64,000 nt of DNA, from the NCBI RefSeq assembly GCF_988242995.1, contig NZ_OZ547043.1. One strand, written 5' to 3'. Made by a program: the position numbers and the translations under genes. Shown in pieces: positions 56,702 to 63,374 of this stretch (its first letter is position 1; each line of letters opens with the position of its first letter). The notes beneath the pieces were generated by a model that had not been told where the DNA came from, did not search any database, and saw only the letters and a program-made list of their open reading frames with translations.

Positions 56702-57934
56702 TTATGCCGCCAGCACGCGGTTGCGTCCATCATTTTTCGCCCGATACAAAGCATCATCAACGCGTTTAAACAGTTCATCGATGCTTTCATTTCCTTCGTG
56801 ATGCGCCACACCAATGCTGACGGTAAAGCGTGGTAAGCCTGAAATACTCACTTTTGCCACGCTTACGCGGATAGTTTCAGCCAGCGAAAGCGCGGTATCC
56901 AGTGGGGTTCTTGGTAGCAATAAGACAAACTCTTCGCCTCCCCAACGAAACACCAAATCGCCTTTGCGAGCGCAACTTTCGAGAGTGCGGGCGAGGGCGC
57001 ATAACACCTCATCACCTTTAGAATGCCCATAGAGATCGTTAATGTGTTTAAAACGATCTGTGTCGATGAGCAATAAGCTGTAATCCTGAGCGATGGCGAG
57101 GTGCTGCATTTGGCCTGGCTCGGTAATGTGATAAAACTGTCGCCGATTCAGTAATCCGGTCATCGCGTCATGGTGGGCAGCATGTTCCAGCTGCTCCTCC
57201 AGCCGTTTTTGCTCAGTAATATCATGCACAATACATAACATGAGCTTGTCGCCATAAATTTCAATCGGCCCGGCATAGGTCTGCACATGACGAGTCGAAC
57301 CATCCGCCAGTTTATGAACAAAATTCAAAGGCTTATGACCGCCTGGTAAATGCGAAATTTCATGCATGATAGGCATGACGCGACGCCCGAGCATATTTAT
57401 TTCCCAGGTATGTTTCTGGCACATCGTTTCATGGTTATAACCATAGAAATTGAGCGCGGCGAGGTTAGCATCGACGATTTGGCCATCTCGTGAGGGGTCA
57501 ATCAACAACATTGGTGCAGAGTTAGTCAGAAAAAAGCGCGCATAAAAACCTTGTTTTTTGCGCTGATAATTTGCCGAGCGACTGGCTTTTAAACCCAGCG
57601 TTGCCGGCGCTTCGATACCTTCGAAAATAATCACCGGTTCTGCTTCTGTCAGCTCTCGCAAAACAAGCCGACAGCTCAATGCTGTTTCCTCTTCATTGCG
57701 CTGAACGGTGAGGATTTCGATAATATCGTGTTGGTTTTGCAGATCGGAGAGGTATTTCGGCAGTTCTTTTTGTGAGGAGACGGAATAGGGACCGGTTCGT
57801 AGCTGACTAAACGTGAGGTCTTGCATCAACAGTCGCGCCGCGCTGTTGGCATAAATTAACTGTTCCTCAAATGGCGAAACGATCCAGACAGGACTGGTGA
57901 GTAAGTCCAGGGTATTGAAGTTGTGCGTAATCAT
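56702..57934 (-). CDS. dgcM: Diguanylate cyclase DgcM (YdaM; PAS-PAS-GGDEF), 410 aa
   Basis: Start MITHNFNTLDLLTSPVWIVSPFEE; GGEEF active-site motif. Confidence 0.9.
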   Translation of the reverse strand: MITHNFNTLDLLTSPVWIVSPFEEQLIYANSAARLLMQDLTFSQLRTGPYSVSSQKELPKYLSDLQNQHDIIEILTVQRNEEETALSCRLVLRELTEAEPVIIFEGIEAPATLGLKASRSANYQRKKQGFYARFFLTNSAPMLLIDPSRDGQIVDANLAALNFYGYNHETMCQKHTWEINMLGRRVMPIMHEISHLPGGHKPLNFVHKLADGSTRHVQTYAGPIEIYGDKLMLCIVHDITEQKRLEEQLEHAAHHDAMTGLLNRRQFYHITEPGQMQHLAIAQDYSLLLIDTDRFKHINDLYGHSKGDEVLCALARTLESCARKGDLVFRWGGEEFVLLLPRTPLDTALSLAETIRVSVAKVSISGLPRFTVSIGVAHHEGNESIDELFKRVDDALYRAKNDGRNRVLAA

Positions 57935-58167
57935 TGAGATCCCGTTATTTTTATCAATTTTTGTTGCTATCCGATCGCAAAAAAGCCACGTCATATGATC
58001 AGATAATTCTGATAATGATAGACGCTATTTAACACTTCACACGGTTTGTATATGGAAAAGCATTTTGCTTTTTGTATTCAATTTAGACAGAATTTTATTA
58101 ATCATTTCAGGGTAATGGGGGGATGAGATGTTGCGTAACAGGGCCAGAAGGCTAGACTACAAAATAA

Positions 58168-59172
<1,005 letters not shown>

Positions 59173-59218
59173 CAAAAGCAATTTTTCCGGCTATCTGTAT
59201 ACAAAAACGCCGCAAAGT

Positions 59219-59232
59219 TTGAGCGAAGTCAA
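59219..59232 (+). promoter_or_regulatory. FNR box (TTGAGCGAAGTCAA) of the fnrS promoter
   Basis: FNR-type palindrome centred ~42 bp upstream of the FnrS 5' end (class II position). Confidence 0.7.
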
Positions 59233-59267
59233 TAAACTCTCTACCCATTCAGGGCAATATCTCTCTT

Positions 59268-59389
59268 GCAGGTGAATGCAACGTCAAGCGATGGGCGTTG
59301 CGCTCCATATTGTCTTACTTCCTTTTTTGAATTACTGCATAGCACAATTGATTCGTACGACGCCGACTTTGATGAGTCGGCTTTTTTTT
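59268..59389 (+). ncRNA. fnrS: FnrS small regulatory RNA, 122 nt
   Basis: GCAGGUGAAUGCAACGUCAAGCGAUGGGCGUUGCGCUCCAUAUUGUCUUACUUCCUUUUUUGAAUUACUGCAUAGCACAAUUGAUUCGUACGACGCCGACUUUGAUGAGUCGGCUUUUUUUU with terminator hairpin and U8 tract, between zntB and dbpA. Confidence 0.85.
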
Positions 59390-59446
59390 GCCTGTTATTT
59401 ATCAGCGTCTACCCTTTAAGAGTCCACCCAATGACCGGAGGGAAAT

Positions 59447-59620
59447 ATGACGACACTTATTTATTTGCAAATTCCTGTCCCTGAACCGATTCCTGGCGAT
59501 CCTGTTCCAGTGCCCGATCCGATCCCTCGCCCGCAACCCATGCCTGACCCACCACCCGATGAAGAACCGATTAAATTGTCGCATCGTGAGCGTAGATCTG
59601 CGAGGATACGCGCCTGCTAA
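59447..59620 (+). CDS. Candidate small proline-rich protein (57 aa), not in the ORF track because it is under 60 aa
   Basis: ATG with GGAGGG Shine-Dalgarno; translation MTTLIYLQIPVPEPIPGDPVPVPDPIPRPQPMPDPPPDEEPIKLSHRERRSARIRAC; stop lies 29 nt upstream of the dbpA GTG start. Confidence 0.4.
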   Translation: MTTLIYLQIPVPEPIPGDPVPVPDPIPRPQPMPDPPPDEEPIKLSHRERRSARIRAC

Positions 59621-59649
59621 CTTTGCGTCGATGACCACGAGAATAGATT

Positions 59650-61023
59650 GTGACCGCTTTTTCTACCCTGAATGTTTTGCCTCCCGCCCAACTCACGAAC
59701 CTTAATGAGTTGGGTTATTTAACCATGACGCCGGTGCAGGCCGCCGCGCTTCCGGCGATCCTTGCCGGAAAAGATGTTCGCGTGCAGGCGAAAACCGGCA
59801 GCGGCAAAACGGCGGCTTTTGGCCTCGGCTTGTTACAGCAAATTGATGCGTCGCTATTTCAAACCCAGGCTTTAGTGCTGTGTCCTACGCGTGAACTGGC
59901 GGATCAGGTGGCAGGTGAATTGCGTCGGCTGGCGCGTTTTCTGCCAAATACCAAAATTTTGACGTTGTGCGGTGGTCAACCGTTCGGTATGCAGCGTGAT
60001 TCGTTGCAACATGCGCCGCATATTATCGTGGCAACGCCGGGCCGTTTGTTGGATCATCTGCAAAAAGGCACGGTATCACTGGATGCGTTGAATACGCTGG
60101 TGATGGATGAGGCCGACCGCATGCTGGATATGGGATTTAGCGACGCCATTGATGATGTCATCCGTTTTGCGCCTGCATCTCGACAGACGCTTCTGTTTTC
60201 GGCAACCTGGCCGGAAGCCATCGCCGCAATCAGCGGACGAGTGCAACGCGATCCTTTGGCGATTGAAATTGACTCAACAGATGCTTTGCCACCCATTGAA
60301 CAACAATTTTATGAGACATCCAGTAAAGGCAAAATTCCTCTGTTGCAACGGTTATTAAGCTTGCATCAGCCATCCTCTTGTGTGGTGTTTTGCAATACCA
60401 AAAAAGATTGCCAGGCTGTCTGCGACGCGCTGAATGAAGTAGGGCAAAGTGCATTGTCGTTACACGGCGATCTGGAGCAACGTGATCGCGATCAGACCCT
60501 GGTACGTTTTGCTAACGGTAGCGCCCGTGTACTGGTTGCGACTGATGTTGCTGCGCGAGGTCTGGATATTAAATCGCTTGAGCTGGTGGTGAACTTTGAG
60601 CTGGCGTGGGATCCTGAAGTTCATGTGCATCGCATCGGTCGTACAGCGCGTGCAGGAAATAGCGGTCTGGCGATCAGTTTCTGTGCCCCGGAAGAAGCAC
60701 AGCGGGCCAATATCATTTCTGACATGTTGCAGATAAAACTTAACTGGCAAACGCCGCCAGTTAATAGTTCCATTGTGCCGCTGGAAGCCGAAATGGCAAC
60801 GTTATGTATCGATGGCGGGAAAAAAGCCAAAATGCGCCCGGGTGATGTATTAGGTGCGCTGACAGGAGATATCGGGCTTGATGGCGCAGATATTGGCAAA
60901 ATCGCCGTGCATCCGGCGCATGTCTATGTCGCGGTGCGTCAGGCTGTTGCTCATAAAGCATGGAAACAGTTACAGGGCGGGAAGATTAAAGGAAAAACGT
61001 GCCGGGTGCGGTTATTAAAATAA
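59650..61023 (+). CDS. dbpA: ATP-dependent RNA helicase DbpA (DEAD-box), 457 aa, GTG start
   Basis: DEAD-box motifs (AKTGSGKT, DEAD, SAT, HRIGRTAR) and C-terminal RNA-binding domain. Confidence 0.93.
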   Translation: MTAFSTLNVLPPAQLTNLNELGYLTMTPVQAAALPAILAGKDVRVQAKTGSGKTAAFGLGLLQQIDASLFQTQALVLCPTRELADQVAGELRRLARFLPNTKILTLCGGQPFGMQRDSLQHAPHIIVATPGRLLDHLQKGTVSLDALNTLVMDEADRMLDMGFSDAIDDVIRFAPASRQTLLFSATWPEAIAAISGRVQRDPLAIEIDSTDALPPIEQQFYETSSKGKIPLLQRLLSLHQPSSCVVFCNTKKDCQAVCDALNEVGQSALSLHGDLEQRDRDQTLVRFANGSARVLVATDVAARGLDIKSLELVVNFELAWDPEVHVHRIGRTARAGNSGLAISFCAPEEAQRANIISDMLQIKLNWQTPPVNSSIVPLEAEMATLCIDGGKKAKMRPGDVLGALTGDIGLDGADIGKIAVHPAHVYVAVRQAVAHKAWKQLQGGKIKGKTCRVRLLK

Positions 61024-61071
61024 TGAAATGTTGAATTGCAGGGTGCAAGAGTAAACATCTTCTTCGGGATT

Positions 61072-61145
61072 GCCGGATGCGACGCTGGCCGCGTCTTATC
61101 CGGCCTCCATAAGAGTAGCCCGATAAGCTTGCGCATCGGGCGCTA
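61072..61145. repeat. BIME/REP cluster between dbpA and ttcA
   Basis: TGCCGGATGCGACGCTGGCCGCGTCTTATCCGGCCTCC matches the REP consensus, followed by a second palindrome GCCCGAT...ATCGGGC. Confidence 0.6.
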
Positions 61146-61151
61146 TCCTGG

Positions 61152-62087
61152 TTATTTCACTTCAACCACATTCAGTCGTAACTCATCCAACTGATTTTCA
61201 TCTTCTTCAGGCTGCCAACCCGCCGGTTGTAGAGGGAGCTCTTCGCGATCAAACGCCAGATCACCCCCGTTAACAACTTCAGAACCGTGGGTAATGCCTT
61301 TGAAATCGAACAGGTTGGTATCGCACAGATGCGACGGCACCACATTCTGCATCGCGCTGAACATCGTCTCGATACGCCCCGGATAACGTTTATCCCAATC
61401 ACGCAACATGTCAGCAATCACCTGACGTTGCAGGTTAGGCTGTGAACCGCACAGGTTGCACGGAATAATCGGGAACGCTTTTGCATCGGCAAAGCGCTGA
61501 ATATCTTTCTCGCGGCAGTAGGCCAGCGGACGAATCACAATATGCTTGCCATCATCGCTCATCAGTTTCGGAGGCATACCTTTCATCTTGCCGCCGTAGA
61601 ACATATTTAAGAACAACGTTTGCAGGATATCGTCACGATGGTGACCCAGCGCGATCTTCGTCGCTCCCAGTTCCGTTGCGGTACGATAAAGGATACCGCG
61701 ACGAAGACGAGAACACAGTGAGCAAGTGGTTTTGCCCTCTGGAATTTTCTCTTTCACGATACCGTAAGTGTTCTCTTCCACAATCTTGTACTCAACGCCC
61801 AGCTTTTCAAGATACTCGGGCAGAACGTGTTCCGGGAAGCCCGGTTGCTTTTGATCGAGGTTAACAGCCACCAGCGAAAAATTGATTGGCGCGCTTTGCT
61901 GCAAATTGCGCAGAATCTCCAGCATGGTATAGCTGTCTTTACCCCCGGAGAGGCAAACCATGATGCGATCGCCTTCTTCAATCATATTGAAGTCAGCAAT
62001 GGCTTCGCCCACGTTACGACGCAGACGTTTTTGTAATTTGTTCAGGTTGTATTGTTCTTTCTTTGTAATTTGTTGATTTTCTTGCAT
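61152..62087 (-). CDS. ttcA: tRNA 2-thiocytidine biosynthesis protein TtcA, 311 aa
   Basis: PP-loop motif CLSGGKDS and paired CxxC motifs; start [30 protein letters not shown]. Confidence 0.92.
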
Positions 62088-62138
62088 TATTTCAGTTCTC
62101 TGGTACTAAATGGGGCAAATTGGGGGCAAACTTTGCAA

Positions 62139-63374
62139 CTACGATAACCGCGCATTCAACATGGCTATCTGTTCGTCGTTCATGTCATCAATCCACATAC
62201 CGTAAATTTCATACACCATCTGCGCAGTTTCATGCCCCATTTGGCTGGCTATAAATGCCGGGTTCGCTCCTGCCGTCAACAGCCAGCAGGCAAAAGTATG
62301 CCGCGTATGGTACGGATTACGGCGGCGAATACCAGCACGTTTTACTGCTGCATTCCACCTTGCCCCCAAACTGCTTACCGAGTAATAAGGTTTTTGTTTT
62401 CCGTTACACACCCTGGGCATGAAAACAAAATGCAGTTTTTGCTTTTCGGTTCTGCCGTACTCCCGATGATAAAAGGTGATTTCGCTTTTGCGATGATGCC
62501 CGGTCAGTTTGTATTGCTCCTTCAGTGCTTCAAGAGCAGGCTGCAGTAGTGTTACTGTTCGGATCCCGGCATTTGTTTTTGGGGGACCGAACATATCAAG
62601 TATCGTCAGGTTTCTTCTGACATTCACTATTCCCTTTTCGAGATCCACATCCTCCCACGCCAGAGCTGCCAGTTCCCCGTGACGAAGTCCTGAGTAAACG
62701 GCAAATTTCCACAAGTTCTGGCTCTGTCCTTTTTCACTTTCCATTAATGCATTGAATTCTGTTTTAGATAACGGATCAGGCTTTATTCTGTTTCGCTGTA
62801 ATTTTTTTACTCCTTCAAATGGTTTGGTTGATATAAATCCCGACTGATACGCAAAACGCAACAGCGAACAGAGCAGGGCGATATAGTTATCAACTGTGCG
62901 CACGGTTCTTCCTTTTTTGTTGGATCTTGGATTATCCAGGTAAAGCGTTTCTCCATGCAGCAGTTCATTCCGGTAGTTTAAGATATCGCTATAACGAATA
63001 TGTGATATCGGGGTACTTTCACAAATTATTATTCTGAGTGTTTTTAATTGTGATTTCGTTTTCTTCATTGTGTTTGTTGTTAACTCTGTCTCTTTAATTT
63101 TTGTCCAGATATCACAAAGCTCTCCGAACGTTTTTATGACTCTCGTTGTCACCATTTTTGCCCCAGTGCTGGACTGGGGAAAACGTCTTAAATACTCAAA
63201 TTCACCGGAGTTTATTTCATGAACTATCAGCGCTCTTAAATTTCCGGCCTTTTTAATATTACTGTTTGTAATCTCCCAGCCTTTTAATGTTTCCCGACAT
63301 CGTTTTCCTCGAAACATGAACCAGATGCGAATGTATCTACCTCTAATCTCGACACCTGTTGGTAATTTAGACAT
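62139..63374 (-). CDS. intR: Rac-like prophage integrase (tyrosine recombinase), 411 aa
   Basis: Tyrosine recombinase C-terminal region (HTRHTFACWLLTAGANPAFIASQMGHETAQMVYEIYGMW); AT-rich; immediately next to the ttcA 5' end. Confidence 0.88.
   Translation of the reverse strand: MSKLPTGVEIRGRYIRIWFMFRGKRCRETLKGWEITNSNIKKAGNLRALIVHEINSGEFEYLRRFPQSSTGAKMVTTRVIKTFGELCDIWTKIKETELTTNTMKKTKSQLKTLRIIICESTPISHIRYSDILNYRNELLHGETLYLDNPRSNKKGRTVRTVDNYIALLCSLLRFAYQSGFISTKPFEGVKKLQRNRIKPDPLSKTEFNALMESEKGQSQNLWKFAVYSGLRHGELAALAWEDVDLEKGIVNVRRNLTILDMFGPPKTNAGIRTVTLLQPALEALKEQYKLTGHHRKSEITFYHREYGRTEKQKLHFVFMPRVCNGKQKPYYSVSSLGARWNAAVKRAGIRRRNPYHTRHTFACWLLTAGANPAFIASQMGHETAQMVYEIYGMWIDDMNDEQIAMLNARLS

Follow-up and report, generated by a model that had tools for sequence, protein, structure and literature searches.

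The 57-codon open reading frame (ORF) directly upstream of dbpA is the known E. coli small-protein gene ynaL and not a new gene. Taken together, the results make it probable that ynaL is translated independently, that its proline-rich core is selected as a peptide, and that its tail runs across the sigma-70 promoter from which dbpA itself is transcribed. All positions given below refer to the window, that is, the whole stretch of 64,000 nt that was analyzed.

Identity and conservation of ynaL

The features that define the ORF and its downstream neighbor are the following:

59437–59442, plus strand: Shine-Dalgarno (SD) motif of ynaL, GGAGGG, 4 nt before the ATG; AGAGGG in K-12 and GGAGG in most genera
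59447–59620, plus strand: ynaL coding sequence (b4743), 57 codons plus TAA, encoding MTTLIYLQIPVPEPIPGDPVPVPDPIPRPQPMPDPPPDEEPIKLSHRERRSARIRAC, which is the sequence of YnaL given in PMC6001520
59447–59497, plus strand: variable N-terminal part, residues 1–17, poorly conserved in sequence and length
59650–61023, plus strand: dbpA coding sequence with a GTG start

An initial annotation had pointed to an unlisted, proline-rich ORF between the FnrS terminator and dbpA, and its description of the layout was accurate. The terminator (stem at 59362–59381 followed by T8 in a terminator scan) precedes the ORF at 59447–59620, which starts with an ATG behind the motif GGAGGG at 59437–59442, has exactly the 57-residue translation that had been quoted, contains the reported PPP run (P35–P37, 59549–59557), and ends with TAA at 59618–59620. 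Then follow 29 nt (59621–59649) and, at 59650, the GTG start codon of dbpA, with TAG-ATT as the two preceding in-frame triplets. The proline content had been put too high at 35%; it is 16 of 57 residues (28%) overall and 50% within residues 10–41. Position 59437 is G here and A in K-12 MG1655, and therefore the very strong SD motif is strain-specific, with GGAGG still being the rule in other genera.

The ORF is not unlisted, because it is already annotated as ynaL/b4743, has its own Pfam family, and its protein product has been detected. The RefSeq product name for 59447–59620 is "proline-rich small protein YnaL", ynaL is annotated at this locus in 5392 of 5426 complete E. coli genomes (b4743 in K-12), and both the gene order fnrS-ynaL-dbpA and the YnaL sequence are the same as for the K-12 reference gene. 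With hmmscan, residues 1–57 aligned to positions 1–57 of the Pfam model PF23677 ('Protein YnaL-like'; E 2.2e-40, 136.8 bits), and among the matches listed PF23677 was found on 120 of 120 YnaL homologues. YnaL has been seen on immunoblots as a C-terminally SPA-tagged protein, with the SPA tag at the 3' end of the chromosomal gene (VanOrsdel et al., 2018; PMC6001520), and ynaL was also positive in tetracycline ribosome profiling (PMC6001520). A full-text literature search for ynaL retrieved the 2018 discovery paper as the only relevant one, a PDB sequence search with YnaL gave no matches, and the NCBIfam profiles yielded, outside the YnaL family itself, only a sub-threshold compositional match to TonB.

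Conservation across Enterobacteriaceae, which had been proposed as a check on the ORF, was assessed in a sample of 80 species, 67 of which entered the selection analysis. In 68 of the 80 species, a ynaL HMM match immediately precedes dbpA; the ATG, the SD motif, and the frame are kept in 68 of the 80, and the pN/pS of the core is 0.135. The distance between the ynaL stop codon and the dbpA start codon is 14–30 nt in 56 species and 57–63 nt in 12 species. The linkage to dbpA is strict, as it holds in every species that has ynaL, which could point to a role of ynaL in cis. The conservation, together with the published detection of the product, supports ynaL as a genuine, translated, and conserved small ORF.

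The proline-rich core

59498–59566, plus strand: proline-rich core, D18–E40 (DPVPVPDPIPRPQPMPDPPPDEE), under protein-level purifying selection, with the PPP run at 59549–59557

In the codons of the core, the first two bases hardly vary and the third is free to change. Across the 67 species, pS is 0.633 and pN is 0.086, giving the pN/pS of 0.135, compared with a pS of 0.634, a pN of 0.056, and a pN/pS of 0.088 for dbpA; the synonymous divergence of the two genes is thus the same. This substitution pattern indicates that residues 18–40 are selected as a peptide. An antisense ORF of 78 amino acids (59402–59638) was rejected. The first bases of its codons coincide with the third bases of ynaL codons, which vary freely, so that it is not conserved as a protein; it arises because stop codons are rare on the strand opposite CCN-rich DNA.

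The segment PDPPPDEEP is invariant or nearly so in both a set of 30 and the set of 67 sequences. It includes D34-P35-P36-P37-D38, an XPPX motif with PPP flanked by aspartate, which we take, with reference to published motif hierarchies, to belong to the strong class. Since D-P-P-P-D is nearly invariant, EF-P dependence of YnaL synthesis can reasonably be inferred, and synthesis that is slow and EF-P-dependent is plausible from the motif. In this respect YnaL resembles CadC and EnvZ, EF-P-tuned polyproline proteins, in having a conserved XPPX motif (D-P-P-P-D) from which a need for EF-P is predicted (for background on EF-P, see PMC11611912 and PMC6023141). In those parts of the supplementary tables of the EfpL paper (PMC11611912) that were accessible, ynaL was not found.

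The AF2 model of YnaL is all coil (pTM 0.22), with a pLDDT of about 90 for residues 21–40. Residues 18–40, an acidic X-Pro repeat containing D-P-P-P-D, are predicted to form an extended, polyproline-II-like rod and to lack a globular fold. The alternation of X-Pro with acidic residues and the extended conformation are shared with the proline-rich region of TonB, and weak profile matches to TonB were found (NCBIfam, E 2.9e-4; Pfam TonB_N, E 0.75). However, the score of 20.8 compares with a cut-off of 315 bits, and YnaL has neither the TonB domains nor a membrane anchor nor a signal peptide; the similarity is compositional. As a default reading, we tentatively infer a trans-acting role as the most likely one for YnaL, in which it would serve as a small ligand or as a spacer peptide. 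Sequences that cause intrinsic ribosome destabilization (IRD) are defined in bioRxiv 10.1101/2021.02.02.429294 as D/E/P-rich stretches near the N-terminus, translated before the exit tunnel has filled. In YnaL, a run rich in D, E, and P spans residues 10–41; however, full-length tagged YnaL is made.

The 3' end of ynaL and the probable promoter of dbpA

Downstream of the core, the conserved elements are organized as follows:

59567–59584, plus strand: box 1 (CCGATTAAATTGTCGCAT; codons P41–H46), −49 to −32 relative to the dbpA transcription start site (TSS); putative A/T-rich upstream part and −35 region of the dbpA promoter
59585–59593, plus strand: promoter spacer, codons 47–49; 9 nt, fixed in length, freely variable in sequence
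59594–59615, plus strand: box 2 (AGATCTGCGAGGATACGCGCC, through 59614; codons R50–A56), −22 to −2 relative to the dbpA TSS
59616, plus strand: published primary TSS of dbpA (G), within ynaL codon C57 and 2 nt ahead of the TAA
59616–59649, plus strand: 5'UTR of dbpA, 34 nt, with a weak, conserved SD motif, CGAGA, at 59638–59642

The TSS was reported at position 1407501 of NC_000913.2, with 126 reads, enrichment of 5'-triphosphate ends, and a 5'UTR of 34 nt (PMC3415461, Table S1), and was assigned 'D', that is, sigma-70, for both sigma-factor binding and binding plus motif (PMC3923258). It was placed on the window through its 51-nt sequence, and the coordinates of other TSSs were converted by the same offset. 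Both tables come from one laboratory and have exponential-phase data in common, so that the dbpA TSS is not independently replicated, and, on the tables alone, the end at 59616 might conceivably be a processed 5' end. The accessible parts of the supplements of Adams 2021, Ettwiller 2016, and Conway 2014 contained no matching TSS or ribosome-profiling entries.

The two boxes and the spacer between them evolve differently. The third-position identity of box 1 is 0.93–1.0 and its pS is 0.067, and in box 2 all three codon positions are invariant, with a pS of 0.005; the corresponding value in the flanking coding DNA is 0.63. For spacer codons 47–49, the pN/pS is about 0.85, and in-frame stop codons are present in 12 of the 67 species. 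Beyond these stop codons, both boxes are kept. They are also kept in Kluyvera, which does not have the proline-rich part of the ORF. From the positions of the boxes relative to the published TSS, together with the frozen synonymous sites, we conclude that the conserved YnaL tail "RSARIRAC" largely reflects the dbpA promoter. Over its last 17 codons (PIKLSH...RSARIRAC), the ynaL frame would thus read across this sigma-70 promoter, and the tail would be conserved at the DNA level and dispensable as protein.

Within box 2, an extended −10 element can be recognized, consisting of TG at 59599–59600 and GAGGAT at 59602–59607, followed by a G+C-rich discriminator, ACGCGCCT, at 59608–59615; the TSS is located 9 nt after GAGGAT. 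The E. coli-type dbpA promoter is non-consensus and was not called by the consensus promoter scan, but its extended −10 does have A as the second and T as the sixth base of the hexamer. A canonical −35 element was considered and rejected, since 20 nt separate the best candidate, TTGTCG, from GAGGAT, and the candidates spaced at 16–18 nt are poor; therefore, the site is described as an extended −10 promoter (TGnGAGGAT). In the outgroups, the equivalent place is occupied by ATGACC-N17-TGCTAGAAT. The homologous site of Dryocola was called by the promoter scan (ATGACC-17-TAGAAT plus TG, 9 of 12 matches) and was the only outgroup site to pass, those of Cedecea and Atlantibacter not being called.

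Promoters of the rrnB P1 type are characterized by a G+C-rich discriminator and a long distance between the −10 element and the TSS. The dbpA promoter, GAGGAT-ACGCGCCT-G(+1), has the same features, with an 8-nt G+C-rich discriminator and a start 9 nt after the −10 element, and it also precedes a ribosome-assembly gene; in contrast to the rrnB P1 type, its −10 and −35 elements are much weaker.

Several other candidates noted by eye in this region, namely a Fis-like site in box 1, a mimic of hairpin 92 of the 23S rRNA, and a minus-strand promoter (TATCCT), were unsupported by sequence or conservation. The substitutions H46R and A52E co-vary (11 species each), which does not represent Watson-Crick compensation; their co-occurrence probably stems from shared ancestry.

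With this TSS in the final sense codon of ynaL, the ynaL ORF is absent from the main dbpA mRNA. Thus dbpA would be transcribed mainly from its own promoter, as an mRNA with a 34-nt leader.

Origin of the ynaL transcript

Upstream of ynaL, and within it, additional transcription signals are found:

59268–59389, plus strand: fnrS sRNA gene with its intrinsic terminator (Rfam RF01796, 134.8 bits, match at 59268–59385)
59388–59415, plus strand: candidate weak ynaL promoter, TTGCCT, 16 nt, TACCCT; no call in the consensus scan
59502–59525, plus strand: two weak published TSSs inside ynaL (PMC3923258 supplements)

The fnrS TSS at 59268 (55305 reads; PMC3923258) is about 400-fold stronger than that of dbpA and is the only strong TSS upstream of ynaL; in two published TSS data sets, none is reported between the fnrS +1 and the ynaL ATG. 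The block CAGCGTCTACCCT at the candidate ynaL promoter is conserved non-coding DNA according to the conservation profile and the alignment. Of the two starts inside ynaL, the one at 59502 (28 reads, stationary phase and heat shock) has been assigned to the old sRNA candidate C0343, and the one at 59525 has 23 reads in heat shock (PMC3923258). The ynaL mRNA probably derives either from a weak promoter or from read-through of fnrS (or zntB) transcription, fnrS being very active, and such transcripts would extend into dbpA as a minor class of bicistronic RNA.

Alternative explanations for the arrangement

Such read-through transcripts raise the possibility of a transcriptional effect in cis. Stalled or aborted translation of the C-rich core, triggered by low EF-P or proline or by poor peptidyl transfer on transcripts from fnrS or zntB, might allow Rho to load on the exposed C-rich RNA and terminate, which would alter read-through into dbpA, relieve occlusion of its promoter, or both. 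Precedents for this are mgtL/mgtA and tnaC. The core is indeed the most C-rich and G-poor 78-nt stretch of the 64-kb window, with a C−G excess of 0.295 (maximum elsewhere, 0.269; background mean, −0.013, sd 0.08), but this C-richness follows automatically from the CCN codons. The roughly 400-fold strength of the fnrS +1, the fact that a separate ynaL TSS is not reported, and the extension of the ORF across the dbpA promoter also fit this scenario, whereas Kluyvera manages without the ORF. On balance, we consider such an effect unlikely. Its specific form, in which fnrS read-through, translated over a C-rich, EF-P-dependent, and ribosome-destabilizing core, gates the loading of Rho and thereby controls how much transcription reads into dbpA as well as occlusion of the embedded promoter, is quite improbable. 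If it were true, dbpA, which encodes a helicase of the peptidyl-transferase center, would be tied to Pro-Pro bond formation and, through the FNR-controlled fnrS, to anaerobiosis.

The initial annotation had proposed that translation of dbpA is coupled to the upstream ORF, and that the ORF might be a stalling-prone regulatory leader peptide. Ribosomes that finish or pause on ynaL would then govern initiation at the weak dbpA start, by coupling or by an arrest switch that possibly senses the performance of EF-P or the peptidyl transferase. The GTG start (59650) and the weak SD motif (CGAGA, 59638–59642) of dbpA are as had been described, the gap of 29 nt is short (14–30 nt in most species), D-P-P-P-D is nearly invariant, and the two genes are strictly linked. 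In addition, a terminator scan of 59447–59650 found no terminator-like site between ynaL and dbpA, and therefore two-gene read-through transcripts are likely. However, a role of ynaL as a classical leader peptide is unlikely, because the main dbpA transcript starts in the last ynaL codon. Moreover, the GTG codon, used in 79 of the 80 species (TTG in one), and CGAGA are the same in 12 species without ynaL, as seen in Kluyvera, Cedecea, Dryocola, Atlantibacter, and Siccibacter, and would be ancestral features that have nothing to do with ynaL. The ORF stops 57–63 nt upstream of dbpA in 12 species. The predicted folds of the short (59616–59700) and the long leader (59560–59700) were no better than shuffled sequences (MFE z of 0.34 and 0.00), and the dbpA SD motif was not sequestered in the predicted fold; based on these z-scores, an RNA switch or SD sequestration at dbpA was dropped. 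Furthermore, the conservation beside the stop codon is at the DNA and not the peptide level, and the C-terminally tagged protein accumulates to detectable levels. Neither proposal is therefore supported as the main mode for dbpA, and we regard control by a stalling-prone leader as rather improbable. Coupling could act solely on whichever share of the transcripts enters from upstream by read-through.

These differences also separate ynaL from the well-known leader peptides. MgtL (MEPDPTPLP...) and MgtP, which precede mgtA and mgtCBR in Salmonella and E. coli, are likewise encoded by short, acidic, proline-rich ORFs in front of a larger gene, and their translation is sensitive to proline, EF-P, and ribosome destabilization (for the context of the latter, see bioRxiv 10.1101/2021.02.02.429294). 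The MgtL and MgtP ORFs form part of the 5' leader of the mRNA that they regulate, via alternative RNA structures and Rho. In the case of ynaL, by contrast, the main TSS of dbpA is located after the ORF, no alternative structure could be detected, and YnaL accumulates as a protein. SecM and TnaC, which control the genes downstream of them, and YnaL all precede a gene and have a conserved C-terminal peptide adjacent to the stop or stall site; the YnaL tail, ...ARIRAC, superficially resembles the SecM motif ...GIRAGP. Yet what is conserved at the C-terminus of YnaL is the DNA sequence (pS 0.005), which outlives the loss of coding, and an SD-sequestering hairpin is absent.

It is very improbable that boxes 1 and 2 represent an RNA element, for example a site for DbpA or an RNase in a long leader, or a C-terminal peptide, instead of a promoter. 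Admittedly, 21 invariant nucleotides in a row exceed the need of a −10 region, and the frame and the second stop codon stay in register past the premature stop codons. However, the TSS is downstream of both boxes, which are therefore absent from the main dbpA mRNA; their geometry is promoter-like, with elements at −49/−32 and −22/−2 around a free spacer of fixed length; a near-consensus promoter occupies the same site in outgroups; a fold signal is absent; and the tail is untranslated in 12 species unless the stop codons are read through.

Finally, that 59447–59620 is a chance or non-functional reading frame, as its small size, low complexity, and lack of a known function might suggest, is effectively refuted by the SD motif, ATG, and frame common to 68 species, the pN/pS of 0.135 at saturated synonymous sites, indels in multiples of three, and the detected protein.

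Implications for ynaL and dbpA

As the discovery of an unannotated ORF, the observation carries no weight, because ynaL entered the annotation of K-12 in about 2018 and is covered by a Pfam family. The annotation is silent, however, about the fact that the motif conserved at the C-terminus of YnaL family members coincides with the dbpA promoter. As PIKLSH...RSARIRAC is mostly the footprint of this promoter, functional studies of YnaL belong on the proline-rich core. With the promoter embedded in the end of the gene, deleting ynaL or adding a 3' tag would disrupt transcription of dbpA as well. The regulation of dbpA has so far been essentially undescribed, and a literature search for dbpA combined with fnrS or TSS terms retrieved nothing on it. 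The G+C-rich discriminator of the dbpA promoter, in the context of ribosome assembly, and the location of ynaL between this promoter and the very strong promoter of fnrS lead to testable hypotheses about how dbpA may be regulated.

A known gene upstream of dbpA

The region between zntB and dbpA, with the fnrS sRNA gene and the proline-rich ORF, contains the following features:

58189-59172: zntB, 5' of ynaL
59268-59385: FnrS sRNA (Rfam RF01796), terminator present, 5' of ynaL
59437-59442, + strand: ynaL Shine-Dalgarno (SD) motif GGAGGG, 4 nt 5' of the ATG
59447-59620, + strand: ynaL, ATG start, 57 codons
59618-59620, + strand: ynaL stop codon TAA
59650, + strand: dbpA GTG, the earliest possible start after an in-frame TAG

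The initial annotation had presented the ORF as unlisted, which does not hold, as it is annotated already as ynaL in RefSeq, K-12, and Pfam. The observation itself is correct, and the gene is one already known. The quoted peptide is exactly the translation of 59447-59620, and 29 nt indeed separate the ynaL stop codon from the dbpA GTG, while the proline content is 28% (16 of 57 residues) instead of 35%. The SD motif, described as strong, is GGAGGG in this strain, but position 59437 is an A in K-12 MG1655 (AGAGGG). A 561-nt query around the ORF found matches in 5392 of the 5426 complete E. coli genomes, which carry it under the name "ynaL: (proline-rich small) protein YnaL". The K-12 MG1655 counterpart is b4743/YP_009518775.1 (1409308-1409481), also between fnrS and dbpA. 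In Pfam, the protein has a family of its own, PF23677 ("Protein YnaL-like"), which matches end to end (E 2.2e-40). No YnaL model was matched in NCBIfam release 20.0, the best match being a sub-threshold one to TonB, and the RefSeq name 'proline-rich small protein YnaL' probably derives from a rule type other than an NCBIfam model. The gene was named after immunoblot detection of its chromosomally 3'-SPA-tagged product; a tetracycline ribosome-profiling screen had earlier scored it as positive but unassigned, and it was noted to adjoin dbpA, possibly in an operon (VanOrsdel et al., 2018; PMC6001520). A full-text literature search found no paper describing a function of YnaL.

From 57639 to 62139, the sequence differs from MG1655 at 73 positions; therefore, the source is an E. 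coli other than K-12. Just 5' of zntB, by collinearity with K-12, should lie the 15-codon ynaN (b4773; 58128-58175, + strand).

Distribution among relatives

A protein search yielded 162 relatives, and PF23677 was present in all among the matches listed. They occur in Escherichia, Salmonella, Citrobacter, Enterobacter, Klebsiella, Raoultella, Leclercia, Lelliottia, Kosakonia, and allies. When 80 dbpA loci, one genome per species, were searched with a YnaL HMM, a strong match was found immediately 5' of dbpA in 68. Conservation of the reading frame, proposed as a check by the initial annotation, was confirmed: the SD motif (GGAGG) and the ATG are kept across relatives, and indels are multiples of three. 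The first ~17 residues are not conserved. Kluyvera has kept fnrS and dbpA and has no proline-rich segment; Cedecea, Dryocola, Atlantibacter, and Siccibacter have neither fnrS nor ynaL at the dbpA site.

The length of the proline-core repeat varies in-frame, with a 10-residue tandem duplication (PDPRPHPQPM twice) in the Salmonella enterica protein (P0053) and an 11-residue deletion in one Escherichia genome (L004, E. coli E69). One E. coli YnaL (P0112) has only 42 aa.

Two layers of constraint in ynaL

Codon-position analysis of 67 orthologues, together with pairwise Nei-Gojobori proportions of nonsynonymous (pN) and synonymous (pS) differences, divides ynaL sharply into the following segments:

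59498-59566: core, codons D18-E40; pS 0.633, pN 0.086, pN/pS 0.135; first two codon positions near-invariant, third free
59567-59584: box 1, P41-H46; pS 0.067; synonymous sites frozen
59585-59593: spacer, codons 47-49; pN/pS about 0.85; neutral evolution, in-frame stops in 12 species
59594-59614: box 2, R50-A56; pS 0.005; synonymous sites frozen

For dbpA, taken as the benchmark, pS is 0.634, pN 0.056, and pN/pS 0.088. The core is a peptide under purifying selection. Box 2 is unchanged even where it is non-coding after in-frame spacer stops, and in Kluyvera both boxes are present at the same spacing without the proline-rich ORF. Therefore, the C-terminal motif of YnaL is imposed by DNA, not by protein.

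In 12 of the 67 species, an in-frame TAG or TAA follows ...IK(L/M)S(H/R), and the 'RSARIRAC' DNA and a second in-frame stop are still kept. The dbpA loci with the early stop are L023, L027, L031, L040, L041, L047, L051, L053, L056, L057, L058, and L064. The Kluyvera-type loci (L071, L073, and L077 from Kluyvera, also L075 and L079) retain fnrS, CTACCCT, both boxes, and dbpA, and lack the ~150 nt for the SD motif, start codon, and proline-rich core (aligned to ~59416-59566); they have either lost this segment cleanly or preserve an ancestral arrangement.

A probable dbpA promoter in the tail of ynaL

A transcription start site (TSS) at NC_000913.2 1407501 (+), with 126 reads in 5'-triphosphate-enriched RNA of mid-exponential cells, has been assigned to dbpA with a 34-nt 5'UTR (Kim et al., 2012, Table S1; PMC3415461). 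The 51-nt sequence listed upstream of it has a single match, at 59566-59616, which places the start at G59616, in the final sense codon of ynaL, 2 nt 5' of the stop. For this TSS, sigma-70 binding and a sigma-70 motif have been given by the same laboratory (Cho et al., 2014; PMC3923258). Numbered from the dbpA +1, box 1 occupies -49 to -32 and box 2 -22 to -2, with the variable codons as the spacer. The sequence of box 2, TG-C-GAGGAT-ACGCGCCT, comprises an extended -10 and, after it, an 8-nt discriminator rich in G+C. Outgroups without ynaL have, at the aligned site, AAATGACC-N17-TGCTAGAAT (or TAGCAT, TAGACT) and then a GCGC-rich stretch; a consensus scan calls this promoter in Dryocola, and calls none at the aligned site in Cedecea and Atlantibacter. 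The E. coli promoter is non-consensus and is missed by the scan, so it is assigned from the published TSS together with the ChIP data and the geometry of conservation. In its G+C-rich discriminator and a start 9 nt after the -10, it may be likened to rrn P1-type promoters.

The tail of ynaL overlaps a conserved element sited at the published dbpA TSS, and conservation beyond the early ynaL stops is attributed to the dbpA promoter. The C-terminal "motif" of YnaL is largely the footprint of this promoter, which is the sole addition made here to the known annotation.

Proposed translational coupling to dbpA

The initial annotation had speculated that the ORF might encode a stalling leader peptide and that dbpA translation could be coupled to it. 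Since virtually all of ynaL lies 5' of the start of the principal dbpA transcript, this mRNA allows no coupling between ribosomes translating ynaL and initiation at dbpA, and the proposal is not supported as the dominant mode of dbpA expression. The GTG and the weak CGAGA SD motif of dbpA are identical in genera without ynaL and hence did not arise on account of ynaL. The ynaL ORF ends 57-63 nt 5' of dbpA in 12 species. A terminator scan found no terminator-like site between the two genes, and neither the 34-nt leader nor a longer RNA with the ynaL 3' end folds better than shuffled sequences (z 0.34 and 0.00); a SecM- or ErmC-like switch was not seen. Towards its end, ynaL uses the rare codons AGA, AGG, and ATA, which are accounted for by the promoter sequence and not by a role in pausing.

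Transcripts from upstream probably run on into dbpA, and a minor bicistronic ynaL-dbpA class with coupling or polarity is therefore possible. Otherwise, little of the leader-peptide model survives. The D-P-P-P-D motif is nearly invariant and, judged by its sequence, should require EF-P. The D/E/P-rich run starts at residue 10, and intrinsic ribosome destabilisation has been described in a similar context (bioRxiv 10.1101/2021.02.02.429294); full-length tagged YnaL is made nonetheless (PMC6001520).

Expression and possible role of YnaL

YnaL is the product of a conserved, translated gene. It may take the form of an extended rod, acidic and made up of X-Pro repeats: AF2 models it as coil throughout (pTM 0.22, pLDDT about 90 over residues 21-40), and no relative was found in the PDB. 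Similarity to the proline-rich region of TonB is compositional only. By default, we suppose that YnaL might act in trans.

The main alternative, that ynaL acts in cis at the level of transcription, appears improbable to us. In its favour, no other stretch of the 64-kb window is as C-rich and G-poor as the proline core (C-G = 0.295 over 78 nt at 59479-59557, + strand; elsewhere maximum 0.269, mean -0.013, sd 0.08), whose composition is plausible for Rho loading when untranslated, and the core lies between the very strong fnrS promoter and the embedded dbpA promoter. An antisense ORF (GTG, 78 codons, 59402-59638, - strand) covers all of ynaL; its first codon positions coincide with the wobble sites of ynaL, which is why it is not conserved as a protein. 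This ORF is probably an artefact, the complement of CCN-rich DNA being poor in stop codons.

The ynaL mRNA might come from fnrS or zntB read-through or from a weak promoter, for which there is one conserved candidate:

59388-59415: TTGCCT-16-TACCCT

A conserved non-coding block, CAGCGTCTACCCT, at 59404-59415 between the fnrS terminator and the ynaL SD motif, found in Kluyvera too, could be the -10 of this promoter or something else. PMC3923258 gives no TSS from beyond the fnrS start (55305 reads) up to the ynaL ATG, and the only two extra starts inside ynaL, at 59502 and 59525, are weak. These were recorded under stationary-phase and heat-shock conditions, and one was assigned to 'C0343' (PMC3923258 supplement), an old sRNA candidate that overlaps present-day ynaL. 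In one table, the fnrS TSS (59268) has 55305 reads vs 126 for the dbpA TSS (59616), so ~1% read-through of the fnrS terminator would exceed dbpA's own transcripts; ynaL and dbpA may therefore be partly controlled by FNR or anaerobiosis. In E. coli STEC388 (L082; NZ_CP041425.1 2224919-2225616), where RefSeq calls a longer ynaL of 61 codons, an IS1A between fnrS and ynaL cuts the gene off from upstream promoters, a natural test case for the origin of ynaL transcription. Since the C-terminal motif of YnaL is largely the dbpA promoter footprint, knocking out ynaL or tagging its 3' end perturbs the transcription of dbpA as well.
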